64,000 nt of DNA, taken from positions 165,875 through 229,874 of the forward strand of contig CALRFF010000002.1 of assembly GCA_943356495.1 (NCBI GenBank), given 5' to 3'. Shown here in pieces: positions 9,232 through 59,198 of the stretch. A program made the translations under genes and the position numbers. Every line of letters starts with the position of its first letter. Within the stretch, counting starts at the first letter, position 1. Below the pieces are notes generated by a model. It was not told the origin of the DNA. It saw only the letters and a program-made list of their open reading frames with translations, and ran no database searches. The DNA is from Candidatus Nomurabacteria bacterium. Its GTDB lineage: Bacteria; Patescibacteriota; Minisyncoccia; Phycocordibacterales; SBAW01.

Positions 9232-9870
9232 ATGGACTCTAACAATACGTGGGGCTGGGTCGTCGGTGTCATTATTGTGCTGCTCGTCATACTGGGCCTT
9301 TGGTGGCTTGTAAGCGCCAACCCTGCTACCGACAATAACGGCATAGCGACTACCACTCCGCAGACGGCTACCACCACTAACACCGGCACCAACCCGGCGC
9401 CGGTCGTTTCAGAGACGCGCACTTCATCGACCGTCGCGGCAATCGCCGCAAGTCTCACCGGCTCAAGCAACTTCGAGGCACTTCTCGTCTCGACCGGCGT
9501 TGCCGCCACCCTTGCAGGCAAGGGTCCGTACACGCTCTTTATCCCGACCGACTCTGCTTACGCGAGCCTTACCCCCGGCACCCTTAGTCAGGCGACTGCC
9601 GCGCAAAAGAAGCGCATCGCACAATACGCGGTCGTCTCGGGCAAGGCGCTCGACATCGACGCGGTTAGCAGCGGCACCTACGCGGCGCTCTCCAAAGACA
9701 TGCTCAACTTTCAGGTCAACCTGCAAAAAAGCACGGTGATGGTTAACAGCGGTACCGCTATCCGCCAGTACAAGGCAAGCAACGGCATTGTCTACGTCAT
9801 CAACGCGGTGCTCGTGCCGCCGCAAACGGGCGCAACCACCACCGGCTCCACCGGCACCCCGCACCCTTAA
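9232..9870 (+). CDS. Fasciclin (FAS1) domain-containing membrane-anchored protein (paralog of 8205-8813)
   Basis: Same architecture as its neighbour (GPYTLFIPTDSAYASL ... SNGIVYVINAVLVPP). Confidence 0.75.
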   Translation: MDSNNTWGWVVGVIIVLLVILGLWWLVSANPATDNNGIATTTPQTATTTNTGTNPAPVVSETRTSSTVAAIAASLTGSSNFEALLVSTGVAATLAGKGPYTLFIPTDSAYASLTPGTLSQATAAQKKRIAQYAVVSGKALDIDAVSSGTYAALSKDMLNFQVNLQKSTVMVNSGTAIRQYKASNGIVYVINAVLVPPQTGATTTGSTGTPHP

Positions 9871-11947: not shown

Positions 11948-11996
11948 GGCACAACTGTAGCAAAGAAAAACCCTCCGCCAAAGGCGGAGGGGAAGC

Positions 11997-44104: not shown

Positions 44105-44109
44105 TTCGT

Positions 44110-44526
44110 ATGGCCGTACATATTATAAAAGCGCAGATAGACGAAACGCTTGCCGCGGCGCCGCTGCAGGGCAAACATCTCGTCGAGCCGCTCAAAAGCA
44201 TTGCCGCCCAAACCGGCTTCCCGCTTAAAGTGCTTGAGGACGTTGCCGTAGTAAACGAGGCCGAGATACATAAGACCGAAGGCGACCTCTGGCAATGCGT
44301 CGAAGGAGAGGTGGAGTTTATATGCGGGGGCGAATTGGTTGACCCGCGTTTTGTTAAACGCGCCGACGGCTCGGACAATACTGATGAGCTTAAGGCGGCG
44401 GAGATACGCGGCGGCGTTAAAACTATACTGCGTCCCGGCGATTGGCTGTGGATACCTCCGGGCGAGCCGCACGTGCACTCATGTGCCGGCGTCGCGCGGT
44501 TGCTTATAGTTAAAATTCCGCGGTAA
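44110..44526 (+). CDS. Cupin-fold protein
   Basis: Small beta-rich protein ending LRPGDWLWIPPGEPHVH. Cupin assignment is tentative. Confidence 0.35.
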   Translation: MAVHIIKAQIDETLAAAPLQGKHLVEPLKSIAAQTGFPLKVLEDVAVVNEAEIHKTEGDLWQCVEGEVEFICGGELVDPRFVKRADGSDNTDELKAAEIRGGVKTILRPGDWLWIPPGEPHVHSCAGVARLLIVKIPR

Positions 44527-44529
44527 TCT

Positions 44530-44578
44530 TGACAAAAATAATTTTTGTGATTACTGTATGCGCAGAGTCAACTGAGGA
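44530..44578 (+). promoter_or_regulatory. Internal sigma70-like promoter (TTGACA-17-TACTGT) plus strong SD (GAGGAG) ahead of the second cupin gene
   Basis: TTGACAAAAATAATTTTTGTGATTACTGT ... TGAGGAGATCTTCCATG read directly from the sequence. Confidence 0.45.
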
Positions 44579-44586
44579 GATCTTCC

Positions 44587-45018
44587 ATGGCTAAACACAT
44601 CGGTGTTGAGTTCGTTGAGCCCAAAGAAGTCGGCCCGCGGCCATGGGGGCGCGAGCTCCTTATCGGCGTGGTACCGGGGCACTACAGCTTCAAGATTCTG
44701 GAAGTGAAGGCCGGCAACAAGGGCGGCCTCCAGAAGCATCACCAGAAGGACGAGATGGGGTATCTGGTGTCGGGGCGGCTTATTGTGCGCTTTGACCCCG
44801 GCACCGGCACGATTGAGGAGAAGGTACTCGGTCCCGGCGCCTGCTTCCACTTTCCGCCCGGGGCGGTGCATCAGGAAGAGGCTCTGACCGACTGCGTCAT
44901 CATCGAAGCCTCGACCCCGCACTTTAACGACCGGGTGCGGATGGAGCCCCAGTACGGGATGGAAATCCCGCCGGGTGGGCTCCCTTCAACCAAGCCCGAG
45001 GACGTCGAAACCCGCTGA
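44587..45018 (+). CDS. Cupin_2 domain protein (resembles the C-terminal cupin of mannose-6-phosphate isomerase/GDP-mannose pyrophosphorylase)
   Basis: PWGRELLIG ... KAGNKGGLQKHHQKDEMGYLVSGRL ... FHFPPGAVHQEE. Confidence 0.55.
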   Translation: MAKHIGVEFVEPKEVGPRPWGRELLIGVVPGHYSFKILEVKAGNKGGLQKHHQKDEMGYLVSGRLIVRFDPGTGTIEEKVLGPGACFHFPPGAVHQEEALTDCVIIEASTPHFNDRVRMEPQYGMEIPPGGLPSTKPEDVETR

Positions 45019-45107
45019 ATATGCAACCTTTTCCCCCGTGTGCCGTTATAAATGGCACCCGGGGTATTTTCTTGATAGAAACAAAACCTTGTGGTACAGT
45101 GCGACCC

Positions 45108-46244
45108 ATGTCAGAGAGCCCAAAACCCAACTTCCGGGAGCAATTGCGCGGTGCTAAAAGCACCTTTTATCTCAGTGCTCAAAAGATAGGTCACGGCCAG
45201 CCGGCGTACTTTATCGCCGAGATAGGCAACAACCACAACGGAGACTTTTTTCTTGCCAAACGCAGTATCGAAGAAGCGGCCAAGGCGGGCGCTCACGCGG
45301 TCAAATTTCAAAAACGCTCTATCAACGACACGTTTGCAAAAGAGTTGCGCGATAAGCCCCAGACCAAAGGTGACATTAAAGGCACTACGTACGGCACCTA
45401 TCGCGAAGGGCTTGAGCTTTCGTTCGAGCAGTTTGTCGAGCTTAAAAAGGTCGCCGAGTTCCACAAGGTCGCCTTTTTTGCGACTCCGTTTGATATACCG
45501 AGCGTCGACTTTTTGGAAAAGGTAGGGGTGCCGTTTTATAAAATAGCGTCCTTCGATGTTACTAACCTGCCGCTTCTTGCGCGCGTTGCCGAAACAAAGA
45601 AGCCGGTCATACTCTCGACCGGCATGGCCACACTCGAAGAGATAGATGAGGCTGTCTCCACGATACTTGCGCACCACAACGAGCTCGCAATTTTGCACTG
45701 CGTTTCTATTTACCCGTCTCCGGACGAGGTTATTAATATCGGCGGCATCAAAATTTTGGAGCGGCGCTACCACCCGTTGCCGATAGGCTACTCGGGCCAC
45801 GAGCAGGACATATTGGCCAGCCTGACCGCCGTCGCGCTCGGCGCATCTATTGTCGAGCGGCATTTTACCCTGTCGCGTTTGCTCCCCGGCCCCGACCATG
45901 CGTCGGTGTCGATAGAACCCCACACCTTTGCCGAGATGGTGCGCTCGGCCGCGCGTATGCGCACTATCCGCGGCACTCGCGGCAAAGAGCTTCTTGATGC
46001 GGAAAAAGTAACCCGCGACAAGCACGGCAAAAGCGTCGTTGCAAAAGTCGCCATACCTAAAGGTGCGATCATTACCGAAGCTATGCTTACCTGCAAGAGC
46101 CCCGGGTACGGACTGAAGCCCCGCGACCTACCGGCGTTGGTCGGTTTGCGTACCACGTGCGCTATTGATGCCGACGCCGTTATCCGACGCGAGGACATCG
46201 CTTGGGAAGACCGCTTGGTCCCCGCCGTACACCCGCAGTCATGA
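45108..46244 (+). CDS. N-acetylneuraminate synthase family (NeuB/LegI/PseI-like PEP-condensing synthase) with C-terminal SAF domain
   Basis: YFIAEIGNNHNGDFFLAKRSIEEAAKAGAHAVKFQKR, plus a C-terminal antifreeze-like/SAF region. Start at MSESPK. Confidence 0.8.
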   Translation: MSESPKPNFREQLRGAKSTFYLSAQKIGHGQPAYFIAEIGNNHNGDFFLAKRSIEEAAKAGAHAVKFQKRSINDTFAKELRDKPQTKGDIKGTTYGTYREGLELSFEQFVELKKVAEFHKVAFFATPFDIPSVDFLEKVGVPFYKIASFDVTNLPLLARVAETKKPVILSTGMATLEEIDEAVSTILAHHNELAILHCVSIYPSPDEVINIGGIKILERRYHPLPIGYSGHEQDILASLTAVALGASIVERHFTLSRLLPGPDHASVSIEPHTFAEMVRSAARMRTIRGTRGKELLDAEKVTRDKHGKSVVAKVAIPKGAIITEAMLTCKSPGYGLKPRDLPALVGLRTTCAIDADAVIRREDIAWEDRLVPAVHPQS

Positions 46245-46990
46245 GCGTCCCAAAAATTTTAGCCGTTATACCCGTGCGCGGGGGCTCTAAGTCGGTCCCG
46301 CGCAAAAATATCCGCCTGCTCGGAGGCAAGCCTTTGGTTGCGCACGTACTCGATGCGGCGCTCGACTCGAAGATGCTTACTTGTGTGGCGGTGTCCTCTG
46401 AAGACCCGGAGATTCTTGCGGTCGCCGCCCAGCACGGCCGCGGTCGCGCGGAAATTATTACCCGCCCCGCGGCGTTGGCTCAGGACGACACGCCCTCCTT
46501 GCCGGTTATTGTGCACGCGGTCGAGGAGCTGGAAAAAAAGCACGGCCGCTTTGACTACGTGGTCATGTTGCAGGCGACTACTCCTTTTGTGCGCACGGAA
46601 GACATAGACGCCTCTCTGAAACTCCTTTTAGATGCCGGCACCGACTCGGTGTTTTCGGTCTGCAAGGCGACCTCGTATCATCCTGCAAAAATGAAGCGCA
46701 TTACCGACGATAACCGCTTGGTGCAGTATGTCGAAGGTATGCCTGAAACCCAGTTTACCCGACAGAAGTTAGATCCAGTATACCGCCGCAACGGCGGGAT
46801 ATACGCGCACAAGCGCGCGGTCGTTATGGAGCGGGGGCTCCTGTACGGTTCGGACAGTACGGTGTGCCGGCCGTATATCATGAGCGACGAACGCTCGGTC
46901 GACATAAACAGCATGGCCGACTTTTTGGCGGCTGAAGCCATTTTCGGCTATTTGCAGGCAGGAGGAGAAGAAAAGTTCGGTAAAAAATAA
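46241..46990 (+). CDS. Acylneuraminate cytidylyltransferase-like (CTP_transf_3), copy 2
   Basis: LAVIPVRGGSKSVPRKNIRLLGGKPLVAHVL. ATGA overlap with the upstream stop. Confidence 0.75.
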   Translation: MSVPKILAVIPVRGGSKSVPRKNIRLLGGKPLVAHVLDAALDSKMLTCVAVSSEDPEILAVAAQHGRGRAEIITRPAALAQDDTPSLPVIVHAVEELEKKHGRFDYVVMLQATTPFVRTEDIDASLKLLLDAGTDSVFSVCKATSYHPAKMKRITDDNRLVQYVEGMPETQFTRQKLDPVYRRNGGIYAHKRAVVMERGLLYGSDSTVCRPYIMSDERSVDINSMADFLAAEAIFGYLQAGGEEKFGKK

Positions 46991-46991
46991 T

Positions 46992-48707
46992 ATGCCCGCC
47001 CATAAAAATATAGACACTATTTGCATAGCGCCCGACACCGCGATAGCGGACACGTTGCGGGTGCTTGCCCGCAACAAGCCGCAAAAAAGCGGTATCCCCG
47101 GCGGCATCGCATTAGTGGTCGACGATTCCCGCACGCTTTTAGGGCTCGTCACCAGCGGAGACTTGCTGCGCGCGGTCGCCAAAGGCACGCCTTTGGCGCG
47201 GCCGGTGCGGAGCATTATGAATAAGGACCCGTTTGTGATTGTCGGCCGGCAGCCCGCCGCCGAGGTGGTGCGCCTTGCGGTGCAAAAAACCCGCGAAGAG
47301 GGCTGGCACAAAGACAGGCTGGAAAAAATTGTCATTGTCGACGCCAAGCGCAAGGTGCTTGATTTGGTCGACCTGTATGACCTGTGGCAGGGCAGCGACA
47401 TACGTCTGCGCCGTATCGCGGTCGTGGGGCTCGGCTACGTAGGGCTTACGTTGGGCCTGACGCTCGCGGATTTGGGCTTTGAAGTGCGGGGGTTTGATCT
47501 GAACGAAAAAGTGCGTGCCATGGTGTCGCGCAAAAAAGCGCCGTTTTTTGAGCTGGGGCTCCCCGAGCTTTTGACCACGCATGTGGGCAAGCGCTTTGCG
47601 GCCGTGGGCACGCTTACCGGCAACGAGTGCGAGGCGTATTTTATTGCCGTCGGTACGCCGCTTAACGCCGCTAAAAAGCCGGACCTCGGACACTTGCGCG
47701 CCGCGGCACAAAGCGTCGGTAAAGTATTAAAGCAAGGTGATGTCGTTATATTGCGTTCGACCGTGCCGCTCGGCACCACGCGCACGGTGGTAGTGCCGAT
47801 ACTGGAAAAGGCATCGGGGCTTACGGCGGGCGAAGACTTTTATGTCGCGTTTGCGCCGGAGCGCACGGTCGAGGGCAAGGCGCTCGAAGAGCTGCGCACC
47901 CTGCCGCAGGTTATCGGCGGTATTAACCGCGCCTCGGCCAACGTGGCGGCGGATATTTTTAACCTGATGACGCGCACTATCCACTTGGTGGACACGCTCG
48001 AAGAGGCCGAGGTGATAAAACTTATCAACAACACCTACCGCGACGTGTCCTTTGCTTTTGCCAACGAAGTGGCGCTTATCTGCCAACGCTGGGGGATAGA
48101 TACCAACAAAGTCATTACCGCGGCCAACGCCGGCTACGAGCGCAGCCGCGTCCCCAAGCCGTCCCCCGGGGTGGGCGGGTACTGTTTGGACAAAGATCCG
48201 TACATTTTTATCGAAGGCGGCAAAGCAAAACAGTACGAGTCCGCGCTGTTTAAAGAAGCGCGCGCGGTTAATACCGCTATTTTGCAGGTAGTGGTCGCTG
48301 ACGCCGTGGCGCACTTGCGTGCCGCGGGCAAAAAAAATCCGAAAGTCTTCGTGCTCGGCTTTGCCTTTAAGGGCAAGCCGGCCACCTCCGACCTGCGCGG
48401 CTCCTCCACGCTTATATTGGTCGAGGGTCTGCGTAAAGCGGGATACAAAAACATCCACGGCTTTGACCCGGTGGTCGGCGCTGCCGAGCTGCGCAAACTG
48501 CGCGTGCGCCCCGTTGCCGACCCGAAAGAAGGGTTTAAAGCTGCCGACTTGGTGATTATTATGAACAATCACGCGTACTTCGAGCAGCCCGACATGGTGC
48601 GCCACCTGCGCCACGCCGCCAAAGGCGCGCTCTTTTTTGACACTTGGGCGCTCCACAATCCGGAAGAAGTCGCCAAAATCTCCAACATCAAGTACCGCCG
48701 CCTATAA
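46992..48707 (+). CDS. CBS-pair domain fused to a UDP-glucose/GDP-mannose dehydrogenase family nucleotide-sugar dehydrogenase
   Basis: N-terminal about 130 aa CBS pair, then IAVVGLGYVGLTLGLTLADLGFEV Rossmann motif and catalytic PGVGGYCLDKDP. Confidence 0.8.
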   Translation: MPAHKNIDTICIAPDTAIADTLRVLARNKPQKSGIPGGIALVVDDSRTLLGLVTSGDLLRAVAKGTPLARPVRSIMNKDPFVIVGRQPAAEVVRLAVQKTREEGWHKDRLEKIVIVDAKRKVLDLVDLYDLWQGSDIRLRRIAVVGLGYVGLTLGLTLADLGFEVRGFDLNEKVRAMVSRKKAPFFELGLPELLTTHVGKRFAAVGTLTGNECEAYFIAVGTPLNAAKKPDLGHLRAAAQSVGKVLKQGDVVILRSTVPLGTTRTVVVPILEKASGLTAGEDFYVAFAPERTVEGKALEELRTLPQVIGGINRASANVAADIFNLMTRTIHLVDTLEEAEVIKLINNTYRDVSFAFANEVALICQRWGIDTNKVITAANAGYERSRVPKPSPGVGGYCLDKDPYIFIEGGKAKQYESALFKEARAVNTAILQVVVADAVAHLRAAGKKNPKVFVLGFAFKGKPATSDLRGSSTLILVEGLRKAGYKNIHGFDPVVGAAELRKLRVRPVADPKEGFKAADLVIIMNNHAYFEQPDMVRHLRHAAKGALFFDTWALHNPEEVAKISNIKYRRL

Positions 48708-49813
48708 TGGAACCCTGCATTGTCACTAACTTCGCGTACGGCACGGGGCCGTACCTGCGCACGACCGAGCTTGCGCTCGCCTTTAACGACGAGCTCGAGC
48801 GCCGCGGGCACAAGCGCATGAAGATAGTGGTGCCCTTGGTGTACGGCGAGCGGCAAAAACAAGTATTGGCAGAGGAATTCGGCGAGCATCCTGAAATTAT
48901 ATTTGACGAAACGCTCGGTGCGCTGTTAAAGAGCGTGTTTTATACGGGCGAGAAAAAATATGAAGAGAGTCTGCGTACGTGGATAACAAAGGCAGACGAG
49001 GTGTCGCGCGCCGCGCATGAGTATTTGAAAGACAAAAACGTCGCGGTCGAGATTAACCGCTCTCCGCGCGTGCGCTACGATGTGGCGCCCAGCTACTCGA
49101 CCGGCTTTGGCTACGTCGCCGATATTCTGGAGCATGCGCTGGCCGCGGGCCGTAGTGTGGTCGATGTAGACCCCGAGTTGCTTAAGGCCGGTATTGCGCT
49201 TGCCGACCGCATCGAGGGTAAGCAAGATTTGCGTTGCATGGCGTATCCCGCAACCTTTTCGTCGTTCCAAAACTACAAGCCGCGCTACGACGGCGAGGTG
49301 CTTGTCCCGCCGATTACCGACCTGCCCAAGGCGCGCGTGCACGAGCCGATGGAAGACGGTTTGTTTGTAACGATTACCGGTATTGAAGGGCTCGAACGTT
49401 TGTACGCCGAGGCCCGCGCGCTGGGGCTAAAGCTGTACTCCAACGACACCGGTGCCGTAGCGGGTGCGGTTAAAGCGTTACCGCACGTGCTCGGTAACCC
49501 CGCTATTAAACTGCAGTTTGCGCGCGCGGGCTGGGGGTCGGTATGGCTGTCGATGTTTACCGGCGTGCCGGTAGTGGTGCCGCAATACGACAAAACCGAT
49601 GACCCGGAGATTTATTGCAACAACAAAGCGGTCGAAGCAACCGGCATCGGTGTGGTGTACCGCGGCCAGCCGCTTGTGGAGATTATGGCGCAGGGCGACG
49701 CCGTGCGCGCAGCCCAAAAAAAGATGCGGGACGCTATTGTGGCGCGGTGGGGGACGCTTAGCGGCAACGAGGTGTGCGCCAAACTCATGGCCGACCGGTT
49801 TCTTGCCAAGTAG
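48707..49813 (+). CDS. Hypothetical GT-B-fold-like protein (possible nucleotide-sugar hydrolase/glycosyltransferase such as PseG/MurG-like)
   Basis: C-terminal ARAGWGSVWLSMFTGVPVVVPQY resembles the GT28 C-terminal donor-binding motif. Start chosen at MEPCIV. Weak assignment. Confidence 0.3.
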   Translation: MEPCIVTNFAYGTGPYLRTTELALAFNDELERRGHKRMKIVVPLVYGERQKQVLAEEFGEHPEIIFDETLGALLKSVFYTGEKKYEESLRTWITKADEVSRAAHEYLKDKNVAVEINRSPRVRYDVAPSYSTGFGYVADILEHALAAGRSVVDVDPELLKAGIALADRIEGKQDLRCMAYPATFSSFQNYKPRYDGEVLVPPITDLPKARVHEPMEDGLFVTITGIEGLERLYAEARALGLKLYSNDTGAVAGAVKALPHVLGNPAIKLQFARAGWGSVWLSMFTGVPVVVPQYDKTDDPEIYCNNKAVEATGIGVVYRGQPLVEIMAQGDAVRAAQKKMRDAIVARWGTLSGNEVCAKLMADRFLAK

Positions 49814-49840
49814 GCGGTTTTTATGTACAGTGTTTCGGCT

Positions 49841-50821
49841 ATGACAAAGCTGATAGTCGAGATTTGCCAAAACCACAACGGCTCGCGCGAGACCGTGCGC
49901 GAAATGATACAGGCCGCCGCACTGGCCGGCGCCGATATTATTAAAATGCAGTCTATGTGGTCGGCCGACCTACCTAAGCGCGAGCGCTTTGAGGAAGGCG
50001 AAGTGCACGCGCAGACCGGTATCCGCACCGCTATTAAGCGCCCCCACGGCCCCGAGCAGGAGCGTCTTGCCACACTTGACCTCTCTATAGACGACCATCA
50101 GTTTTTTATCGACACCTGCCACCGGTACGGGGTGTTGCCGATGACCACTATTTTCTCGCGGCACCGTATTGCGGAGGTTGCGGGCCCCAAAGCCCCCGGC
50201 AAATGGGTTAAGGTGGCAAGTTACGATTGCGCCAGTTACCCCATGCTGCGCGAGCTTGCCGAGCATTTTGATAACTTTATTATCTCGACCGGCGCAACCT
50301 ACGACCACGAGATACAAAAAACCGCCGAGCTTATGAAAAGTTTGGGTAAAAACTTTTCCTTTTTGCATTGCGTCACCAGCTACCCTAACGCGCTCGAAAT
50401 CTGCAACCTTGCGCGCATGGAGTGGTTGCGGCAGTTTACGCCGACGGTCGGTTGGAGCGACCACACCAAGATAGCCGACACCGGTTTGGCGGCGGCAAAA
50501 ATCGCCATTATGCTCGGTGCCGACTACGTCGAGCGGCACTTTACTATTTTGCCCGCCGATCAGACCAAAGACGGACCGGTTTCGATTAATCCCGCGATGC
50601 TCCGCGAGCTCTCCGCGTTTCGCAATCTTTCCAAAGCGCAGCAGCAGGAGCAGATAGCAAAAGAATATCCTAACTGGAAGTCTGCCGTAGGCGTGCCGGT
50701 GCGCGAGATGGGCCATATCGAGCTCCTCAACCGCGACTATTACCGTGGTCGCTTCGCCAGCCCCGACGGCAACGGCGGGTGGATATATAATTGGGAGGAA
50801 AAGCCGGTGCGCTTTGCCTAA
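49841..50821 (+). CDS. Divergent NeuB-family (N-acetylneuraminate synthase-like TIM barrel) protein without SAF domain
   Basis: LIVEICQNHNGSRETVREMIQAAALAGADIIKMQ and HCVTSYP parallel the first NeuB-like gene (IAEIGNNHNGD ... AVKFQ, HCVSIYP). Confidence 0.55.
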   Translation: MTKLIVEICQNHNGSRETVREMIQAAALAGADIIKMQSMWSADLPKRERFEEGEVHAQTGIRTAIKRPHGPEQERLATLDLSIDDHQFFIDTCHRYGVLPMTTIFSRHRIAEVAGPKAPGKWVKVASYDCASYPMLRELAEHFDNFIISTGATYDHEIQKTAELMKSLGKNFSFLHCVTSYPNALEICNLARMEWLRQFTPTVGWSDHTKIADTGLAAAKIAIMLGADYVERHFTILPADQTKDGPVSINPAMLRELSAFRNLSKAQQQEQIAKEYPNWKSAVGVPVREMGHIELLNRDYYRGRFASPDGNGGWIYNWEEKPVRFA

Positions 50822-51857: not shown

Positions 51858-52901
51858 GTGGCGAAGATTGTGCTCGCGGCCCACGATGCGGGTCCGTCGA
51901 ACGCGCTTGGCGCGTTTGCCAAGGTGCTCGACTCTCCGGCGGTGTTTCTCGCGAACGCCGGCAAGACCTACCTGAACGAAAAGGCGACGGATGCCATGCG
52001 TTACAGCATACGCACCGCCGACTTCGTGCTTATCGGGATGTCGTTCCCGGAGGCTAATGCCGCCATCGAACTGATGGCGGCAAAGACCGCCGCGGAAGCG
52101 CGGATCCCGTACGGTTTCTGCGCCGACATACCGGGCGCGTGGAACCGTGTATGGTTTGCACCGTACCGCGCGTCGGCATCATTGTTGCTTACGGTGGGCG
52201 GCGTTGAGGAGATTGCCAAAGCGACGGCGCTCTTCCCCAAAGCCTACATCACCCGCACGGGCAACCCCGAGTGGGAGAAGTACTTCCTGCCCGCGAGCCG
52301 GAGTGCGGCCCGCGGCGCAATGGGCGCAAGTGATGACGAGTTTGTCATCCTTTCGCCCGGCGGCAAAGACGCGGTGCTCAATATCCAGTCATGGTCGACG
52401 GTGGTCGAGGCCGCCTCCTTGTACCGGAGTAATGTGGCGGTCGTGCTGACTTGCCACCCCGGCGACCGCACTCCGAAGGACGTGTACCAGTCGTTGGCAC
52501 ACTACGGCCAAAAGCTCGGCGTGCGGGTGCTCTGCTCGGAAACGCCAAGCGATGTACTGGTACCCGGCGTTGATGTGGTGGTACAGACACCAAACTTTTC
52601 GGTCGGCCTGCACGCGATGTGCAGGCGAGTCCCCGTCATCGATATGATGGGGGCCATGGCCGCGGAGCGGGTGTTTGAAAACACGGGTACGCGCGAAGGT
52701 CAGTTTGCGGGTACCGAGGCGGTGTTGTCGCTGTATTACGAAGAGGCGACCGCCCCCGCTCTGGCGCAAGCATTGGTGTCGGTGCGCACCAACACCGTCA
52801 TGCGCGAAGCGCAAGAGCGGTTGCTTCCGCCGCTTAAGCAAGGCGGTGCGGTCGCGGCGATGAAAGCCGCGGTCGAAGAAGTGCTCAATAAGAAGCGTTA
52901 G
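51858..52901 (+). CDS. Hypothetical protein (last gene of the ulosonic-acid-like sub-cluster)
   Basis: GTG start with SD AAAGAGG. No recognisable motif. Followed by a strong terminator. Confidence 0.4.
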   Translation: MAKIVLAAHDAGPSNALGAFAKVLDSPAVFLANAGKTYLNEKATDAMRYSIRTADFVLIGMSFPEANAAIELMAAKTAAEARIPYGFCADIPGAWNRVWFAPYRASASLLLTVGGVEEIAKATALFPKAYITRTGNPEWEKYFLPASRSAARGAMGASDDEFVILSPGGKDAVLNIQSWSTVVEAASLYRSNVAVVLTCHPGDRTPKDVYQSLAHYGQKLGVRVLCSETPSDVLVPGVDVVVQTPNFSVGLHAMCRRVPVIDMMGAMAAERVFENTGTREGQFAGTEAVLSLYYEEATAPALAQALVSVRTNTVMREAQERLLPPLKQGGAVAAMKAAVEEVLNKKR

Positions 52902-52908
52902 CCAGCAG

Positions 52909-52937
52909 CCCCTCCGTCAAACGGAGGGGCTTTTTTC
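52909..52937 (+). terminator. Rho-independent terminator (CCCCTCCGT-CAA-ACGGAGGGG + CTTTTTTC)
   Basis: Read directly from the sequence. Confidence 0.7.
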
Positions 52938-52941
52938 TATA

Positions 52942-52951
52942 ACGCCCCGTG
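52942..52951 (+). promoter_or_regulatory. GTGGTATAGT extended -10 motif 16 nt upstream of the ligase-like gene ATG
   Basis: The same 10-mer recurs at 55199-55208 and 56687-56696. Confidence 0.35.
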
Positions 52952-52967
52952 GTATAGTCTCTGTCAT

Positions 52968-55199
52968 ATGCAATACACCACGTACTTGCGCTGGGGCGTC
53001 ATAGCCGGCGTTTTTTTGGTTCTTATTACTCCGTTTTTGGTCGCCGGTTCCTGGGGCATACCGCCGTACTTTTTCCCTTTTATAACGGCTAAAAACTTTA
53101 CTTTCCGCATACTGGTCGAGTTGTCGCTCCTGTTGTACGTGATACTCGCCCTGCGCGAGCCCAAGTACCGCCCCCGCCCGTCGCTCATTATGTGGGCGGT
53201 GCTCGGGCTTGTGGTGTGGATGGGCTTGTCGACCATTACCAGCGTCGACCCGATAAAAAGCTTTTGGAGCAACTTCGAGCGCATGGACGGTTATGTTAAC
53301 CTCCTACACCTCTTTGCGTGGTTTGTTATCACCGGCGCGGTATTAACCGCCGAGAACTTGTGGGGGCGTTTTATTAATACCTCCATCGGTCTTAGTGCCG
53401 TGCAAGGGCTTGTGGCGCTTTTGCAGGTGATGCACCTGTTTGGGTTTGCCCCGAGTTCGCAAAGCGGCATACGCGCCGACACCACGTTCGGTAACGCGAC
53501 CTACTTGGCCGTGTTTATGCTGTTTAACATCTTCCTTACACTCTTTATGCTCGCGGGCCGTCTGCAAAAAGGCCGCCTCAGCGGCGGGTGGCAGGCGCTC
53601 TATGGTTTGGCGTTGGTGCTGCAGTTTGCGGGGCTCTTCTTTACCGAAACGCGCGGTGCACAACTTGGCGTTATCGGCGGGCTTATCGTCAGCGCGCTTT
53701 GGATAGCGGTATTTGCGGGGGCCAACCTTAAGGCGGCGCGGCGCTACGCGCTCTATACGCTCGGCGGACTCGCGGTGCTTATCGCGGTGTTTATAGGCAT
53801 CCGCGACACGCAGTTTGTCCAAAGCTCTTCGACGCTCAGTCGCTTGGCCTCTATCTCGCTCAGCGACTCTACCATCGCGGCCCGCATTCACTTTATCTGG
53901 CCGACGGCCATTAAAGGCATTATGGAAAAACCGGTAACCGGCTGGGGTGCGGAGAACTTTAGTTTCGTCTTCAATAAATATTACGAGCCGGGTATGTACA
54001 ACCAAGAGCAGTGGTTTGACCGCGCGCACAACCAATTCCTCGACTTCGGGATCGCGGGCGGCGTGCCGGCGCTCCTGTTGTACCTGTCACTCTTCTTCCT
54101 CGGTCTGTGGGCGCTGTGGCGCTCAAATCTCGGCGTGGCCGAGCAGGCGGTGCTCGTGGGGCTGTTGGCCGCATACGGGTTTAACAACTTGGCGGTCTTT
54201 GACAACGTAGTGAGCTTTATCTACTTCTTCGCGTTGATGGCGTACCTGCACAGCATCTCGCGCAAGGAGCTGCCGGGGTGGTTGTTCCTGTCGCGCAAAG
54301 TAGGCGAGCAGCCGCTGGCCATAGCCGCGCCGGTGCTCGCGATACTGATACTCGGCGCGGGCTTTGTGGTAAACGCGCCGGCGATGGCGCGCGCCTCGCA
54401 GCTGGTGCAGGCGCTCGGCTCGCAAAGCTCGGCCGACAAAAACTTGGCGCTCTTTGCCGCCTCGCTTGAAAACACAAAGCTGCCGGGCAACCCGATAGGG
54501 CTGCAGGAGGCGGTCGAGCAGTTGTCGCAGTTCAGCGTTAACACGGTGGCGCCTTCCTCCGTCGCCCCGGGCGTTAAGCAGCAGTACTTCTCGCTTACCG
54601 CCGGCAATCTTGAAATATTGATGCAGCAGCGCCGGCACGACGCGCGCCTCGAGCTCTTTATGGGGTTGCTGCTTTCGACCTTCGGCGACTATCAAAACTC
54701 AATCTCCTACCTTAACCAAGCCCTTGCCGACAGCCCTAAAAAACAGCAGATACTTATGCAGCTGGGCCTTACCCAAATACAAAGCGGTCAGCTTATAGAT
54801 GCGGTTGCAACGTTGCGCACCGCGTTTGAGTCGGAGAAAAACTATGACACCGCGCGCGTACTGTACGCCAGCGCGTACTACTATGCGGGGGATACCGCGC
54901 AAGGCGACGCGCTCCTGATAGAAAAGTGGGGTTCGGTCGTGGTAGACAACGACCAACTGATGCAGGTGTACACCAACACCAAGCAATGGTCGCGCGCCGT
55001 CGCTATCTGGAAGCTCCGCATCAGCAAAGACGACACCAACGTCCAGCTCCGCCTTGGCCTTGCGGGCGTGTACTTTGCCTCGGGTGACAATGCCTCGACT
55101 ATCGCCGAGTTGCGCGCCGTGGCCAAACTCCAGCCCGCTTCCGCCGGCCAAATGGAGACACTTATAAAGCAGATTCAAGACGGCACCCTAAAGCCCTAG
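52968..55199 (+). CDS. O-antigen ligase/PglL-like (Wzy_C) polytopic membrane protein with C-terminal TPR repeats
   Basis: About 12 hydrophobic helices with a large loop (HNQFLDFGIAGGVPALLLYL) typical of Wzy_C, then about 200-aa TPR-like helical repeats (YLNQALADSPKKQQILMQLGLTQIQSGQLIDA...). Confidence 0.6.
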   Translation: MQYTTYLRWGVIAGVFLVLITPFLVAGSWGIPPYFFPFITAKNFTFRILVELSLLLYVILALREPKYRPRPSLIMWAVLGLVVWMGLSTITSVDPIKSFWSNFERMDGYVNLLHLFAWFVITGAVLTAENLWGRFINTSIGLSAVQGLVALLQVMHLFGFAPSSQSGIRADTTFGNATYLAVFMLFNIFLTLFMLAGRLQKGRLSGGWQALYGLALVLQFAGLFFTETRGAQLGVIGGLIVSALWIAVFAGANLKAARRYALYTLGGLAVLIAVFIGIRDTQFVQSSSTLSRLASISLSDSTIAARIHFIWPTAIKGIMEKPVTGWGAENFSFVFNKYYEPGMYNQEQWFDRAHNQFLDFGIAGGVPALLLYLSLFFLGLWALWRSNLGVAEQAVLVGLLAAYGFNNLAVFDNVVSFIYFFALMAYLHSISRKELPGWLFLSRKVGEQPLAIAAPVLAILILGAGFVVNAPAMARASQLVQALGSQSSADKNLALFAASLENTKLPGNPIGLQEAVEQLSQFSVNTVAPSSVAPGVKQQYFSLTAGNLEILMQQRRHDARLELFMGLLLSTFGDYQNSISYLNQALADSPKKQQILMQLGLTQIQSGQLIDAVATLRTAFESEKNYDTARVLYASAYYYAGDTAQGDALLIEKWGSVVVDNDQLMQVYTNTKQWSRAVAIWKLRISKDDTNVQLRLGLAGVYFASGDNASTIAELRAVAKLQPASAGQMETLIKQIQDGTLKP

Positions 55200-55246: not shown

Positions 55247-55277
55247 CAACAAGCCGCCGCAAGGCGGCTTGTTGTTT
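55247..55277 (+). terminator. Hairpin (CAACAAGCCGCC-GCAA-GGCGGCTTGTTG) followed by a short T run
   Basis: Read directly from the sequence. Lies 40 nt downstream of a GTGGTATAGT motif. Confidence 0.45.
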
Positions 55278-55396
55278 GCGCTATATACTACAGAGGTAGC
55301 GCTTTGAGCGGGGAGCGGAGCACTCACATTAGGACAATGTATTGGAGCTCGCTTTCCGCTTCCCGTTCAGAGCACAACTCGGTACACTGGTTGTGT

Positions 55397-56383
55397 ATGA
55401 CTATCGAAGAGCATGTGCCGCTTGCCCCGTTGACCACGTTTGGTCTTGGCGGCGCGGCGCGTTTTTTATTGCGGGTGGGCGATGTCGTGCAGTTGCAAGA
55501 AGCCATTACCTTTGCGCAAGAAAAAAAACTCAACACGTTGTTGCTTGGGGGTGGGTCTAATCTGCTGGTGGGCGACGGCGGGTTTGACGGACTGGTTATT
55601 AAAATAGAAATGCGAGGCGTAGTGCAAGACGGCGACACGCTGGTAGCGGGTGCGGGAGAGAGTTGGGATGCACTGGTGGCGCGTAGTGTCGCGGACGGTT
55701 TGTGGGGGCTCGAAAATCTTTCCGGCATCCCCGGCACGGTAGGTGCCGCGCCCATACAAAACATCGGCGCGTACGGCGCAGAAGTTGCGGATACGCTTGC
55801 GTGGCTCGATGCTTTTGATACGCACGAAGACAAGACGGTACGTTTTTTGGCGCAAGAGTGCGGCTTTGCGTACCGCACCAGCCGGTTTAAACAGGAGTCG
55901 GGGCGCTATGTGGTGCTGCAAGTTGCGTTTGCTCTTAAGAAAAACGGCGTACCAAACCTATCGTACAAAGACCTTGCGGGATTGAAGCAACCGACTCTCG
56001 CCGGCATACGAGCGCAGGTGCTTTCGGTGCGCGCGCAAAAGTTCCCCGACCTCGCCAAAGAGGGCACTGCAGGCTCGTTTTTTCTTAATCCTATTGTGTC
56101 CGGCGAAGTCGCGGGCCGTTTGGCCGCGCAGTATCCGGAGTTGCCGCAGTTCCCCGCAGAGGGCGGCGTAAAACTATCGCTCGCATGGCTGCTCGACGAA
56201 GTATTGCACCTCAAAGGCGCACGTGTCGGCGGCGCGCGGACCTTTGAGCGTCAGCCGCTGGTGCTGGTTGCGACGCCCGACGCGCGCGCAGGCGATGTGT
56301 GCGCGCTTGCCGAACAAATAAAAAAAGAAGCAAAAGAAAAATTAGGAATCGAAATCCAAGAAGAAGTGCGTATCGTGCGGTAA
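55397..56383 (+). CDS. murB: UDP-N-acetylenolpyruvoylglucosamine reductase
   Basis: PLAPLTTFGLGGAARFLL, LLLGGGSNLLV FAD-binding motifs. Start at MTIEEHV. Confidence 0.85.
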   Translation: MTIEEHVPLAPLTTFGLGGAARFLLRVGDVVQLQEAITFAQEKKLNTLLLGGGSNLLVGDGGFDGLVIKIEMRGVVQDGDTLVAGAGESWDALVARSVADGLWGLENLSGIPGTVGAAPIQNIGAYGAEVADTLAWLDAFDTHEDKTVRFLAQECGFAYRTSRFKQESGRYVVLQVAFALKKNGVPNLSYKDLAGLKQPTLAGIRAQVLSVRAQKFPDLAKEGTAGSFFLNPIVSGEVAGRLAAQYPELPQFPAEGGVKLSLAWLLDEVLHLKGARVGGARTFERQPLVLVATPDARAGDVCALAEQIKKEAKEKLGIEIQEEVRIVR

Positions 56384-56554
56384 ATCAGTCGAAGCAGTTA
56401 TCCACAGTTAGAGATTATTTTTCGTTGTATAAGCAGACATAACGTTCGATACTTATTACTAGAGCATCGAATTGCTCTTCTGAGATACTCCTAGGATATT
56501 TCTTTAGAGCGGTCGAGCGATGCGCAACCCAATGCGGTGCAAACCGCCACTATT

Positions 56555-56608
56555 ATGGCCAAGAAAAAGAAGGCAAAGAAAAAGAAGGCAAAGAAGTCGC
56601 GCCGCTAA
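56555..56608 (+). CDS. Micro-ORF encoding a 17-aa poly-lysine peptide (MAKKKKAKKKKAKKSRR)
   Basis: Intact ATG...TAA frame built from a duplicated AAGAAAAAGAAGGCA unit. Followed by two hairpins. Could be a coding peptide, a leader peptide or chance. Confidence 0.2.
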   Translation: MAKKKKAKKKKAKKSRR

Positions 56609-56654
56609 GCGCGAATGTCCCGCACTATTGTGCGGGCATCCTCTCGAAAGAAAA

Positions 56655-56680
56655 GCCGCCGAGCAATCGGCGGTTTTTCT
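56655..56680 (+). terminator. Rho-independent terminator (GCCGCCGA-GCAA-TCGGCGGT + TTTTTCT) just upstream of the secA promoter
   Basis: Read directly from the sequence. A second 7-bp hairpin (CCCGCAC-TATT-GTGCGGG) lies at 56619-56636. Confidence 0.6.
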
Positions 56681-56686
56681 TATAGT

Positions 56687-56696
56687 GTGGTATAGT
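56687..56696 (+). promoter_or_regulatory. GTGGTATAGT extended -10 motif 16 nt upstream of the secA ATG
   Basis: Read directly from the sequence. No SD before secA, consistent with a very short leader. Confidence 0.35.
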
Positions 56697-56711
56697 ATTT
56701 GCCTCACTGGT

Positions 56712-59198
56712 ATGTCATTTCTAACAAAACTATGGGGCGATCCTGCTCAAAAAATAGTAGCCGCAAGTCGCGGCATAGTCGAGGCGGTAAACGGCTTCGA
56801 ACCCGAGTATAAAGCGCTCTCTACCGAGGAGCTGTACGACCGCACCCACAAGTTCCGCAACCGCATATCGGCGGGGGAGACGCTGGAGGATTTGTTGCCC
56901 GAGGCTTTTGCGGCGGTACGCGAAGCGTCGGTGCGCACGGCTGGGCTCCGGCATTTTGACGTACAACTGGTGGGCGGCGTGGTGCTAAACAACCGCGGTA
57001 TTGCGGAAATGAAGACCGGCGAAGGTAAAACCTTGGTCGCCACTTTGCCGGCGTACCTTAACGCGCTTATGGCCAAGGGCGTGCACGTGGTAACGGTCAA
57101 CGATTACTTGGCGCGTCGCGACGCGGCGTGGATGGGGCAGATATACGCGGCGCTCGGCATGTCGGTGGGGATTATCGGCGCCGACGGCTCGTACCGCTAC
57201 GACCCCAAGCATATCGAGACCGACAAAGAGCGTGACCAAGAGGGGAGCTTTAAAGTATTTTATGACTTTTTGCGCCCCTGCACACGGCGCGAGGCGTACG
57301 AGGCCGACATTACCTACGGCACCAACTCGGAATTCGGCTTTGACTACCTGCGCGACCATATTTCCTACGATGCCAAAGATCTGCGCCAGCGCGGCCACTT
57401 TTTTGCGCTGGTAGACGAGATAGACTCTATCCTTATCGACGAGGCGCGCACACCGCTTATTATCTCCGCGCCCACCACCGAGTCGGAAGACCTCTACCGC
57501 ACCTTCGCGCGCATTGCCGGTACGCTCGAGCCCCTACGCGACTACACGGTAGACGAAAAACAACGGGCGATACAGCTGACTGACGAGGGCATTACCCGTG
57601 CGGAAAAGGCACTGGGCGTAGACAATATATACAGCGAGGGCGGTATTAAGTACGTGCACCATTTAGAAACCGCGGTGCGGGCGCAAGCGCTCTTTCATTT
57701 GGACAAAGAGTACGTTATCCGCAGCGGCGAGGTGGTGATAGTCGACGAGTTTACGGGCAGGCTCCAACCGGGGCGCCGCTGGAGCGAGGGGCTCCATCAG
57801 GCCATCGAGGCAAAAGAGGGTGTGGCGGTACAAAAAGAGTCCCGTACTTTTGCGTCTATTACCTACCAAAACTACTTCCGTCTGTACGACAAGCTTGCGG
57901 GCATGACGGGCACCGCTAAAACAAGCTCCGAGGAGTTTTATAAAGTGTACGGGCTCGAGGTTATCGAGGTGCCGACCAACCGCCCCGTACAGCGCAAGGA
58001 CGACAACGACCGCATCTTCCAGACCGAAAACGGCAAGTTTCAGGCGATAGCCTATGGGGTTAAGGAGCTGCATAAAAAAGGCCAGCCGGTGCTTATAGGC
58101 ACGGTGAGCATCGAAAAGAACGAGCTTCTGTCGAACTTTCTAAAGCGCGAGGGCGTGCCGCACGAAATGCTTAACGCCAAAAACCACGAGCGCGAAGGCG
58201 AGATAATCGCGCAGGCCGGGCAAAAAGGCAAAGTTACGGTAGCGACCAACATGGCGGGCCGCGGCGTCGACATTAAGCTCGGCGGTGCTTTGGCTACCCC
58301 TGAGCAGGCCGAAGAGGTCAAGAAACTCGGCGGCCTTTTTGTGCTGGGCACCGAGCGCCACGAGGCGCGGCGCATAGACAACCAGCTGCGCGGCCGCTCG
58401 GGCCGCCAAGGCGACCCGGGCGAAACGCAGTTTTTTGTGTCGCTCGAAGACAGCCTGATGCGTATTTTTGCCCCCGACTCTATTAAGACCATGATGGGCC
58501 GCTTCGGGATACCGGAGGACGAGCCGATAGAAAACCGGATAGTTAACCGCGCACTCGAAAGCGCCCAAAGCAAAATCGAGGGCTTTAACTTCGACGCGCG
58601 TAAGCACGTGCTCGAGTTTGACAACGTGCTCGACAAACAGCGCCGCGCGATATACGACCGCCGCACAAAAATTTTGACCGGCGGGCCGGAGCGCGTTACC
58701 GATGTCCTTACGGAGTTGGCGGCGGACAGTACCGAAGCCCTCGAGCTGCTCAACAAAAAGTCGCACGAGGTGGGGGAGGAGAAGTTTCTTGCCATGGCGC
58801 GCGGCATACTCCTGCAGACGCTCGATTTGCTGTGGGTCGACCACTTGGAGTCAATGGAGTACCTGCGCGGCAGTGTTAACCTGCGCGCCTACGGCCAACG
58901 CGACCCGTTAACCGAGTACCGCCGCGAGGGCACCCGCCTGTATAAAGACCTCGAGGAGATGTACCGTACCCGCGTATTTGAGTTGTTGGAAAAGTTGTCC
59001 GACCTGCCTGCCGGCCAGGCAGGCCAGCCTGCCGCCACGCCGATGCCGAGCCCCGCGCAGGTGTTTACCGTGCGCGCGCCGGGGGCCGACAAAATCGAGC
59101 GCAACGACCCGTGCCCGTGCGGCTCCGGCAAAAAATGGAAGTCCTGCGGGCTACTCAACACCTCCGAGCACCAAACGCTCTTAGCCGCAAAACACTAG
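56712..59198 (+). CDS. secA: Preprotein translocase ATPase SecA
   Basis: TGEGKTLVATLPAYLNAL (Walker A), DEIDSILIDEARTPLIIS, C-terminal zinc finger CPCGSGKKWKSCG. Confidence 0.9.
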   Translation: MSFLTKLWGDPAQKIVAASRGIVEAVNGFEPEYKALSTEELYDRTHKFRNRISAGETLEDLLPEAFAAVREASVRTAGLRHFDVQLVGGVVLNNRGIAEMKTGEGKTLVATLPAYLNALMAKGVHVVTVNDYLARRDAAWMGQIYAALGMSVGIIGADGSYRYDPKHIETDKERDQEGSFKVFYDFLRPCTRREAYEADITYGTNSEFGFDYLRDHISYDAKDLRQRGHFFALVDEIDSILIDEARTPLIISAPTTESEDLYRTFARIAGTLEPLRDYTVDEKQRAIQLTDEGITRAEKALGVDNIYSEGGIKYVHHLETAVRAQALFHLDKEYVIRSGEVVIVDEFTGRLQPGRRWSEGLHQAIEAKEGVAVQKESRTFASITYQNYFRLYDKLAGMTGTAKTSSEEFYKVYGLEVIEVPTNRPVQRKDDNDRIFQTENGKFQAIAYGVKELHKKGQPVLIGTVSIEKNELLSNFLKREGVPHEMLNAKNHEREGEIIAQAGQKGKVTVATNMAGRGVDIKLGGALATPEQAEEVKKLGGLFVLGTERHEARRIDNQLRGRSGRQGDPGETQFFVSLEDSLMRIFAPDSIKTMMGRFGIPEDEPIENRIVNRALESAQSKIEGFNFDARKHVLEFDNVLDKQRRAIYDRRTKILTGGPERVTDVLTELAADSTEALELLNKKSHEVGEEKFLAMARGILLQTLDLLWVDHLESMEYLRGSVNLRAYGQRDPLTEYRREGTRLYKDLEEMYRTRVFELLEKLSDLPAGQAGQPAATPMPSPAQVFTVRAPGADKIERNDPCPCGSGKKWKSCGLLNTSEHQTLLAAKH

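Follow-up and report, generated by a model that had tools for sequence, protein, structure and literature searches.

The window, that is, the whole 64-kb stretch of DNA analysed here, contains a gene encoding a 743-aa membrane protein (52968-55199, + strand, as are the other parts of the locus described below), in which a WaaL-type fold (Wzy_C) is followed by an additional transmembrane helix (TM13) and a TPR tail. The ATG start of this ligase gene is supported by the orthologue alignment, because the orthologues all begin at the same Met. As the first-pass annotation of this DNA had pointed out, the gene stands directly downstream of glycan genes: it is preceded by a variable glycan island roughly 35 kb long (17822-52901, i.e., 17.8-52.9 kb). 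On the other side lies a conserved backbone block (55304-59198) consisting of murB, which starts at 55304 or 55397 and ends at 56383, and secA (56712-59198, with the start as called). The transferases of the island comprise six GT4, one GT2, two TagF-like genes, a carbamoyltransferase and methyltransferases; its sugar genes comprise epimerases/dehydratases, a UDP-sugar dehydrogenase, two NeuB and two CMP-sugar synthetase-like genes, and the glycan product of the island probably contains nonulosonic acids in this genome. A polytopic ORF of the island (28269-29723), which has at least eight hydrophobic peaks and no Pfam or NCBIfam match, aligns weakly but collinearly in BLASTP (E 0.47) with a Polysacc_synt flippase from a relative and is tentatively considered a candidate flippase. 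In Pfam searches of the 64-kb window, neither a priming phosphoglycosyltransferase nor an LCP ligase, pilin or S-layer gene was found, and lpx, kdt and waa genes are likewise absent from the window. Two fasciclin proteins are encoded at 8205-9870. No second Wzy_C-like ORF was detected when the family HMM was run on all ORFs of the window and of 85 related loci, a search that a divergent Wzy would escape.

Two hairpins frame the ligase gene, consistent with the earlier observation of terminators on both sides. The first, a strong intrinsic-terminator-like hairpin (52907-52931) with an 11-bp stem including 8 G-C pairs and followed by the T-run TTTTTTCT, stands between the last island gene (51858-52901) and the ligase gene. 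The second, 3' of the ligase stop (55249-55272, scan core 55256-55268), has a perfect 10-bp stem, a GCAA loop and a weak T-tract, and is probably the terminator of the ligase gene. The promoter motif that had been ascribed to the gene is present as the extended -10-like motif TGGTATAGT (52950-52958), located 9 nt 5' of the ATG, but its function is less secure: a consensus sigma-70 scan called no promoter before the ligase gene, because there is no -35 match at TGGTATAGT. The exact 9-mer occurs three times in the window against 0.16 expected, always on the + strand and intergenic, namely before the ligase gene, after the ligase stop and before secA. The degenerate motif TGNTATANT has five sites, all in intergenic gaps of the + strand, three of which (15009, 52950, and 56688) lie 9-15 nt ahead of a start codon. 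Overall, TGNTATANT is not enriched in the window (5 sites versus 3.3 expected), and what stands out is the exact 9-mer and its placement. From these sequence patterns a promoter at TGGTATAGT is plausible, in which case the ligase mRNA would be leaderless or nearly so.

Both parts of the Wzy_C plus TPR architecture proposed in the first-pass annotation were detected by Pfam. The Wzy_C domain (PF04932; 53607-54086, aa 214-373) was found with E 5e-19 and 69 bits (gathering score, 31.7), and the model is covered fully (1-149 of 149), placing the protein in this superfamily. TPR_19, TPR_14, and TPR_20 match at aa ~548-650, with more TPR-like matches at 666-732, and weak NCBIfam matches of the TPR region were obtained to PgaA, BcsC, and PrsT. 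The PglL-type domains PglL_A (PF15864) and Wzy_C_2 (PF11846) were both absent at E<=1 from the Pfam search of the protein. The AF2 model (pLDDT 88.6, pTM 0.83) shows 13 transmembrane helices followed by paired helices at 489-737; the C-terminal tail measures about 250 aa, and roughly 190 aa of it are recognisable as TPR by sequence, close to the roughly 200 aa of repeats estimated before. Full-length queries were dominated by TPR proteins: Foldseek with the full-length model against PDB returned TPR proteins only, and TPR matches likewise swamped a search of PDB sequences with the full-length profile. The transmembrane core was therefore modelled and profiled separately, and its best PDB match by structure and by sequence is WaaL of Cupriavidus metallidurans (PDB 7TPG/7TPJ), with 16% identity; phmmer with the single core sequence against PDB gave no match. 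The core (TM1-TM12; 52968-54305, aa 1-446) thus has a WaaL-like, polytopic GT-C(B) fold. In public databases the family is annotated as 'O-antigen ligase family protein'.

The residues that characterise this fold are also retained. R229 (53652-53654), R306 (53883-53885), and H354 (54027-54029), all within the Wzy_C domain, align with WaaL R191, R265, and H313, respectively; they are predicted on the outside face of the membrane and are invariant among orthologues, which bears out the earlier description of a polytopic ligase-like protein. That this Arg/Arg/His set would serve to bind Und-PP and in catalysis follows the WaaL comparison in a previous study (PMC12800693). TM9 and TM10 are joined by a large extracytoplasmic loop (53802-54032, aa 279-355) that carries the motifs WGxENF and QEQWFDRAHN and has a mean column conservation of 0.71; the outside loops overall (0.66-0.86) are the most conserved part of the protein. 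TM13 (54306-54377, aa 447-470), identified by topology prediction and AF2, is an extra helix that carries the C-terminal domain outside: the segment is hydrophobic in 84/84 orthologues (mean KD 1.57), and the loop before it is K/R-rich. The K/R density is 0.194 in predicted inside loops and 0.062 in outside loops, and, because of this bias together with the 13 transmembrane helices, the tail (54432-55178, aa 489-737) is predicted to be extracytoplasmic. Its assignment as a helical-repeat domain is based on the TPR matches and on paired helices with pLDDT >90. TM13 and the outside tail domain are invariant among orthologues, and the tail residues E514, E517, R560, P590, K592, and Y633 are kept in at least 97% of them. 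In the model, the TPR domain is predicted to sit outside the membrane beside the catalytic loop, a position that fits the earlier suggestion that it could select the acceptor; for a TPR motif C-terminal to Wzy_C, the predicted S-layer O-oligosaccharyltransferase WsfB offers a precedent (PMC2943079).

The match to WaaL and the public annotation of the family could indicate a genuine WaaL, transferring O-antigen to lipid A-core in a diderm envelope. This role is highly improbable because lipid A is reportedly missing from CPR bacteria. Candidatus Adlerbacteria and other Paceibacteria are the closest relatives, in agreement with the earlier recognition of a CPR organism; according to previous studies, lpxC, kdsA and the synthesis of lipid A are absent from CPR bacteria, whose envelope is reported to be Gram-positive-like (PMC5220378, PMC10221324, PMC8871954). 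The lack of lipid A genes in the window, which the first-pass annotation had noted, agrees with the reported absence of lipid A/LPS synthesis in CPR (PMC5220378, PMC10221324), and lpx and waa genes are missing from all 64 kb. The architecture differs as well: WaaL sensu stricto has about 400 aa and ends after the last core transmembrane helix without an outside domain, whereas the CPR protein, with 743 aa and 13 transmembrane helices, adds TM13 and, outside the membrane, a TPR tail of roughly 250 aa. Moreover, its gene adjoins murB/secA and not a waa core-oligosaccharide cluster, and a CPR host would offer no lipid A acceptor. We are highly confident that the acceptor is something other than lipid A-core.

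The first-pass annotation had further regarded the gene as closing the island. The ligase as an island gene was rejected, since its synteny and conservation follow the backbone, and the island is swapped from genome to genome. Orthologues with 35-70% identity over the full length are present in at least 451 Paceibacteria (Parcubacteria) species, and the conservation of the protein is in the same range as that of murB. Genomes carrying the gene include GCA_943356795.1 and the complete Campbellbacteria genome CP011215.1. Downstream of the ligase gene lie secA (59/60 loci) and murB (52/70 loci); upstream, glycan genes occur in 57 of 63 loci. They occupy a median of 26% of the 10 kb upstream versus 0% downstream, and their families differ between loci; even in a relative with a 69%-identical ligase, the adjoining island is entirely different. 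The ligase gene marks a fixed chromosomal site at which strain-variable glycan islands are exchanged.

This arrangement also bears on whether the protein could be a Wzy-type polymerase of surface-polysaccharide repeat units, with the TPR tail as a chain-length or export scaffold. Pfam Wzy_C includes polymerases, TPR scaffolds are common in polysaccharide export, and no separate polymerase is visible, as no other Wzy_C-like ORF occurs in the window or in the 85 related loci. However, Wzy polymerases are encoded within the variable cluster and co-vary with the repeat unit. The ligase gene instead keeps its backbone position and its 35-70% identity while the island changes, it is conserved in the same range as murB, and conservation is highest in its outside loops, so a polymerase is very unlikely. 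A conserved enzyme next to variable glycan genes points to a terminal ligase that is glycan-promiscuous but uses a conserved acceptor, and speaks against a Wzy polymerase; the protein is very probably a ligase-type terminal transferase. Most likely, it joins the sugars of the island to a conserved surface acceptor.

Among characterised or predicted Wzy_C proteins, WsfB of Paenibacillus alvei and WsaB of Geobacillus stearothermophilus were predicted to be S-layer O-oligosaccharyltransferases; for WsfB, as for PglL, a TPR motif C-terminal to Wzy_C was described, whereas WsaB has a separate TPR protein encoded next door (PMC2943079). These are monoderm Wzy_C proteins encoded with an S-layer glycan gene cluster, and, judging from their published descriptions, they are the closest match to the CPR protein in architecture and genomic logic: a Wzy_C domain with C-terminal TPR, encoded with a surface-glycan cluster, is also what is found here. 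Unlike them, the CPR family is a class-wide backbone gene outside the glycan cluster, and the window contains no recognisable S-layer gene. The PglL, PilO (TfpO), and PglS enzymes of Proteobacteria share the WaaL-like core and the catalytic His with the CPR protein. The PglS model has 13 transmembrane helices and a C-terminal periplasmic domain with a cleft over the active site, its catalytic His is positioned as in WaaL, and broad glycan tolerance was reported (PMC12800693). The layout of PglS, a WaaL-like core with an extra transmembrane helix and an outside C-terminal domain, is reproduced in the CPR protein, but the tail fold differs: the C-terminal domain of PglL/PilO/PglS is Wzy_C_2, with PglL_A as a further PglL-type domain, and in the CPR protein it is a TPR solenoid. 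TfpO and PglS also adjoin their pilin genes, whereas the CPR ligase is flanked by murB/secA and glycan genes.

Taken with the reported absence of lipid A, these likenesses make an O-oligosaccharyltransferase similar to WsfB, PglL, and PglS the best reading and our leading hypothesis, held at slightly less than even confidence. In such a pathway, the enzymes of the adjacent island would build oligosaccharides on undecaprenyl pyrophosphate, and the lipid-linked glycan would then be flipped to the outer side of the membrane. There, R229 and R306 of the WaaL-fold core would bind the Und-PP-glycan, with H354 as the catalytic base, and the glycan would be transferred en bloc to a hydroxyl of the acceptor. 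The acceptors would be one or more secreted or surface proteins, such as pilins, S-layer proteins or further proteins of the envelope, which the TPR domain would hold or select. The Und-PP route is inferred from the family, because Pfam detected no priming enzyme in the window and the flippase assignment is tentative. A protein is the most likely acceptor, since lipid A is reportedly lacking and TM13 would put the TPR solenoid beside the active-site loop, but we give it somewhat less than an even chance. TPR domains also serve as polysaccharide-export scaffolds, and the tail, with its weak matches to PgaA, BcsC, and PrsT, need therefore not bind a protein acceptor. Three further points count against an O-oligosaccharyltransferase: the closest solved structure, WaaL, is a lipid-acceptor ligase; PglL_A and Wzy_C_2 are missing at E<=1; and no pilin or S-layer gene, as a candidate acceptor, lies beside the ligase gene here or in relatives with annotated neighbours. 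Of the PglL/PilO-type O-oligosaccharyltransferase originally proposed, the enzymatic activity is thus retained as the leading hypothesis, but the domains typical of PglL and a neighbouring pilin or S-layer gene are not seen.

The more general rule from which that proposal started, that Wzy_C proteins of bacteria without LPS act as O-oligosaccharyltransferases, was too broad, because TacL of Streptococcus pneumoniae, a 397-aa Wzy_C ligase, transfers Und-PP-linked teichoic acid to a glycolipid (PMC5727136). The CPR protein resembles TacL as a monoderm Wzy_C ligase that would move an Und-PP-linked polymer to a non-LPS acceptor. It might accordingly be a lipoglycan ligase that joins the Und-PP-glycan to a membrane glycolipid anchor, yielding an LTA-like or lipoglycan polymer in a monoderm cell; the TPR tail would then scaffold either the polymer, as it grows or is exported, or partner enzymes. 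The lipid acceptor of WaaL, the two TagF-like genes of the glycerophosphotransferase family in the island, and the weak resemblance of the TPR region to the export scaffolds PgaA and BcsC are in favour of this possibility, as is the same job done by TacL in a monoderm (PMC5727136), and a conserved lipid anchor would equally account for the conservation of an enzyme whose glycans vary. Nevertheless, we consider it unlikely. TacL and the matched WaaL chain (403 residues) are both too short for TM13 and an outside domain, so the compact form of about 400 aa is not the one found in this 743-aa protein with its outside TPR; genes for glycolipid-anchor synthesis are not seen nearby; and CPR bacteria are thought to lack their own fatty-acid synthesis (PMC10221324), with which a scavenged lipid anchor would still be compatible.

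The deeply conserved murB adjacency (52/70 loci) raises another candidate acceptor, peptidoglycan or lipid II, to which the Und-PP-glycan would be ligated in the role that LCP phosphotransferases have in Firmicutes and Actinobacteria, with the TPR domain binding the wall or the wall-synthesis machinery. No LCP gene occurs within the 64-kb window, and a point mutant of E. coli WaaL led to peptidoglycan on LPS, which ties the WaaL reaction to peptidoglycan precursors (PMC4296511). Such a cell-wall ligase is nonetheless improbable: the murB/secA synteny may simply be the frozen gene order of streamlined genomes, and the ligase, murB, and secA genes each seem to have a promoter motif and hairpin of their own. 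Furthermore, no Wzy_C-family enzyme is known to ligate onto peptidoglycan. A wider version, which we hold to be just as doubtful, envisages a class-wide Paceibacteria envelope ligase that would couple hypervariable Und-PP-linked glycans either to peptidoglycan/lipid II or, co-translocationally, to nascent Sec substrates; docking of the outside TPR domain on the Sec machinery or on that of wall synthesis would account for the almost universal linkage of murB and secA. If true, it would amount to a functional LCP replacement, a previously unknown route of wall glycosylation, and a new acceptor class for the WaaL fold.

The construction of the CPR/Patescibacteria envelope is still described as unclear (PMC5220378), and a literature search on CPR/Patescibacteria with Wzy_C/O-antigen ligase, oligosaccharyltransferase or LCP returned nothing relevant. 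The present gene represents one conserved, structurally confident enzyme in hundreds of Paceibacteria species, at a locus whose arrangement resembles an O-antigen locus, although these bacteria are reported to lack LPS. Should the acceptor be a protein, as the O-oligosaccharyltransferase hypothesis holds, the family would represent a general system of O-glycosylation for a major lineage that is uncultured and would provide a candidate for a glycan-tolerant O-oligosaccharyltransferase with a new acceptor-recognition module. The border formed by the Wzy_C-TPR gene, murB, and secA also offers a practical anchor for locating and comparing surface-glycan loci in CPR metagenomes.

The ligase gene (52968-55199, + strand) starts with ATG and encodes a protein of 743 aa, in which Pfam matched both parts described in the first-pass annotation: a Wzy_C domain at aa 214-373 (69 bits, gathering score 31.7) and, at aa 548-650, several TPR families. 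Matches in NCBIfam were all below threshold and concerned the TPR parts of PrsT, MamA, PgaA, PilW, BcsC, and NlpI, and neither PglL_A nor Wzy_C_2 was matched in Pfam even at E<=1. When a core profile built from 36 ligase orthologues was searched against all PDB sequences, WaaL (7TPG/7TPJ) was the sole match (E 1.3e-7), and the profile alignment placed R229, R306, and H354 of the ligase on R191, R265, and H313 of WaaL; these residues are invariant in three orthologue sets (n = 46, 84, and 36). In a recent study of PglS, arginines were put forward as possible ligands of the Und-PP pyrophosphate, and the catalytic role was assigned to a histidine that aligns with the one proposed to be catalytic in WaaL (PMC12800693). 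By analogy, R229, R306, and H354 are taken to be the counterparts of these arginines and histidine.

According to hydropathy and the positive-inside rule, the N-terminus lies inside, with a K/R density of 0.194 in predicted inside loops versus 0.062 in outside loops (84 orthologues), and the long loop of aa 279-355 is predicted outside. The thirteenth TM helix is hydrophobic in every orthologue and brings the TPR tail to the predicted outside, near the catalytic loop. Conservation is highest in the outside loops of the ligase (mean column conservation 0.66-0.86); the tail scores 0.51, and its residues E514, E517, R560, P590, K592, and Y633 are kept in at least 97% of orthologues, which points to a conserved ligand of the tail.

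The closest relatives of the ligase protein are from Patescibacteria, the named matches coming from Candidatus Adlerbacteria (68%), Paceibacterota, Kaiserbacteria, Campbellbacteria, Taylorbacteria, and Yonathbacteria. The family comprises more than 3190 proteins at E<=0.001, publicly annotated as "O-antigen ligase family protein" or "O-antigen ligase/TPR repeat protein"; the best 120 matches are all full length with 50-70% identity, and at least 451 species-representative genomes carry the ligase, with identity down to 35%. In the window, the ligase gene is followed by murB, secA, a NUDIX gene, a DsbD-type membrane protein gene, obg, and gatB. Five further relatives each have a different glycan gene set 5' of the ligase gene, often with a divergently transcribed Polysacc_synt flippase, while murB and secA lie 3' in all four with downstream sequence. 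Among 85 non-redundant loci (denominators vary by measure), secA was found on the same strand within 7.5 kb downstream in 59/60, and murB within 3 kb in 52/70. Of the 10 kb upstream, a median of 26% was covered by a set of 31 glycan-pathway queries (matches in 57/63 loci, at least 20% coverage in 39), with family composition varying from locus to locus, whereas downstream coverage was 0%, with any match in one locus only. The last four island genes of the window have no counterpart in a 69%-identical relative, with which the window shares MurB, SecA, Obg, and GatB at 65-84% identity; divergence of the ligase is in the same range as that of MurB. Because the murB/secA synteny is conserved and the upstream glycan genes are swapped, the ligase gene is a conserved backbone gene bordering a hot spot of glycan-island exchange, and the earlier view that it closes the island as one of its members was rejected.

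The glycan island itself (~35 kb, 17.8-52.9 kb) lies directly upstream of the ligase gene, as first described. It encodes six GT4 and one GT2 glycosyltransferases, a GDP-mannose dehydratase, other epimerases, a UDP-sugar dehydrogenase, several methyltransferases, one carbamoyltransferase, and two TagF-like proteins. Nonulosonic acid genes include two NeuB-family synthases (45021-46244, with a SAF domain, and 49823-50821) and two CMP-sugar synthetase-like genes (43370-44104 and 46202-46990), and the island product may contain two different nonulosonic or ulosonic acids. Cupin proteins, a 2-hydroxyacid dehydrogenase, and the UDP-sugar dehydrogenase, which is fused to a CBS domain, are encoded in the same stretch (43370-50821). 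Just upstream of it are ORF 32092-33441, with a sub-threshold NCBIfam match to "BFO_1060 family glycosyltransferase" (49 bits, cut-off 200), and the two TagF-like (PF04464) genes (35170-36543; 39942-41327, - strand), which may be putative transferases for these sugars. ORF 28269-29723, the sole other polytopic membrane ORF in the island (at least eight hydrophobic peaks), has no Pfam or NCBIfam match and only a weak, collinear BLASTP match to the Polysacc_synt flippase of a relative (E 0.47); it could be a flippase or a polymerase. At the left edge of the island (15027-17895), a gene for a TrwB/TraG-like coupling-ATPase-family protein (582 aa) precedes one for a ComEA-like helix-hairpin-helix protein fused to a PKD domain. 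The 64-kb window yielded no recognisable lpx/waa, LCP, pilin, S-layer, or priming-transferase gene, in agreement with the absence of lipid A genes noted at first.

The pairing of an interchangeable glycan locus with a conserved enzyme whose WaaL-type active site is intact fits a terminal ligase, which would recognise a common lipid carrier and a conserved acceptor and tolerate many glycans. Wzy polymerases co-vary with the repeat unit and are encoded inside the cluster; the conservation of the ligase outside it, beside an interchangeable island, makes a Wzy polymerase improbable, even though no second Wzy_C-like gene was found near the ligase gene, a search that divergent polymerases would escape. 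Joining of the glycan to the cell wall, for which we know of no precedent in the Wzy_C family, is rated only slightly higher. Ligation to a glycolipid, the non-LPS role of the Wzy_C-family protein TacL (PMC5727136), is favoured by the lipid acceptor of WaaL, the closest solved relative; however, TacL and WaaL (~400 aa) are too short for TM13 and an outside tail such as those of the 743-aa ligase, and we consider this role unlikely, though less so than the preceding two. A true WaaL acting in LPS is very improbable, as the first-pass annotation held in preferring a protein or wall target, because Parcubacteria/CPR are reported to lack lpxC/kdsA and lipid A synthesis and to have a Gram-positive-like envelope (PMC5220378, PMC10221324, PMC8871954).

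Tentatively, we favour a protein O-oligosaccharyltransferase (O-OTase), given the extra TM helix, the large outside domain, the precedents of WsfB, PglL, and PglS, and the shortness of WaaL and TacL. O-OTases of the Wzy_C family act on S-layers (WsaB/WsfB, as predicted) or on pilins and in general glycosylation (PglL, PilO, PglS), and TPR domains also act as scaffolds in polysaccharide export. In an O-OTase, the TPR solenoid would be the acceptor- or partner-binding module. The layout resembles the PglS model, in which 13 TM helices are joined to a periplasmic C-terminal domain that forms a cleft (PMC12800693), and a C-terminal TPR motif has been reported for WsfB and PglL (PMC2943079). The PglL/PilO-type assignment made earlier stands in its domain layout, but the ligase lacks the PglL_A/Wzy_C_2 accessory domains of PglL-type enzymes and no acceptor was identified; together with the export role of TPRs and the lipid acceptor of the closest solved relative, this leaves the preference over other non-LPS roles not decisive, and part of the probability falls on none of these readings. 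The Wzy_C and TPR architecture is already known (PMC2943079), and the ligase is an uncharacterised enzyme of known type. Judging from literature searches, its class-wide conservation in Paceibacteria, its fixed position between a hypervariable glycan locus and murB-secA, and its predicted outside TPR domain appear to be undescribed, and it offers a concrete, testable entry point into CPR envelope glycobiology.

Terminators on both sides and an own promoter had also been proposed. The upstream hairpin (52907-52931) is strong and terminator-like, while the downstream one (55249-55272) is a perfect 10-bp hairpin with a weak T-tract. The extended -10-like motif TGGTATAGT lies 9 nt 5' of the ligase ATG, but a consensus promoter scan made no call there because no -35 was matched, so that an own, near-leaderless transcript is plausible only. 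The window has three exact copies of the 9-mer (0.16 expected), all intergenic and on the + strand: one before the ligase gene, one directly after its stop, and one 15 nt ahead of the start called for secA. All five sites of its degenerate form TGNTATANT (15009, 51791, 52950, 55200, and 56688) are likewise intergenic and on the + strand, and three (15009, 52950, and 56688) sit 9-15 nt ahead of a start codon, a position suggestive of transcription units with no leader or a very short one. For a murB promoter, the placement of the copy at 55200 would be unusual: it begins one base past the ligase stop, with the hairpin at 55249-55272 still to follow.

Read from TTG 55304, murB encodes 359 aa; MurB of most relatives has 330-337 aa, which points to ATG 55397 as the start. 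The longest secA ORF starts at 56520, but the start set by gene callers (56712) directly follows a hairpin (about 56653-56676) and TGGTATAGT, and the first 64 codons are probably not translated. In two related metagenome contigs, secA is broken into several short called genes (L007, 13763-15779; L008, 14207-16391), probably through assembly frameshift errors and not biology. Peptidoglycan genes are scattered across the window, with murB at about 55.4 kb and a FemAB-like acetyltransferase-fold gene (Acetyltransf_6) adjoining a Mur-ligase-family gene at 9867-12247 (- strand).

In the stretch 5567-8115, a bacterial 16S rRNA gene (5567-7029, 1463 nt) is followed, ~900 nt downstream, by tRNA-Ile(GAT) and tRNA-Leu(CAG); the gap holds two small ORFs without family matches, and protein-coding genes follow the tRNAs. 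No 23S gene was found in the window, including the remaining 57 kb after the 16S gene, and the rRNA genes therefore appear unlinked. Two adjacent genes (8205-8813 and 9232-9870) encode fasciclin-domain proteins with one N-terminal hydrophobic segment each; they are probably secreted or located at the surface, and may be candidates for glycoproteins. From ~12.9 kb to the window end (12900-64000), strand bias is strong, with the + strand carrying nearly all genes, and cumulative GC skew increases near-monotonically across the window.
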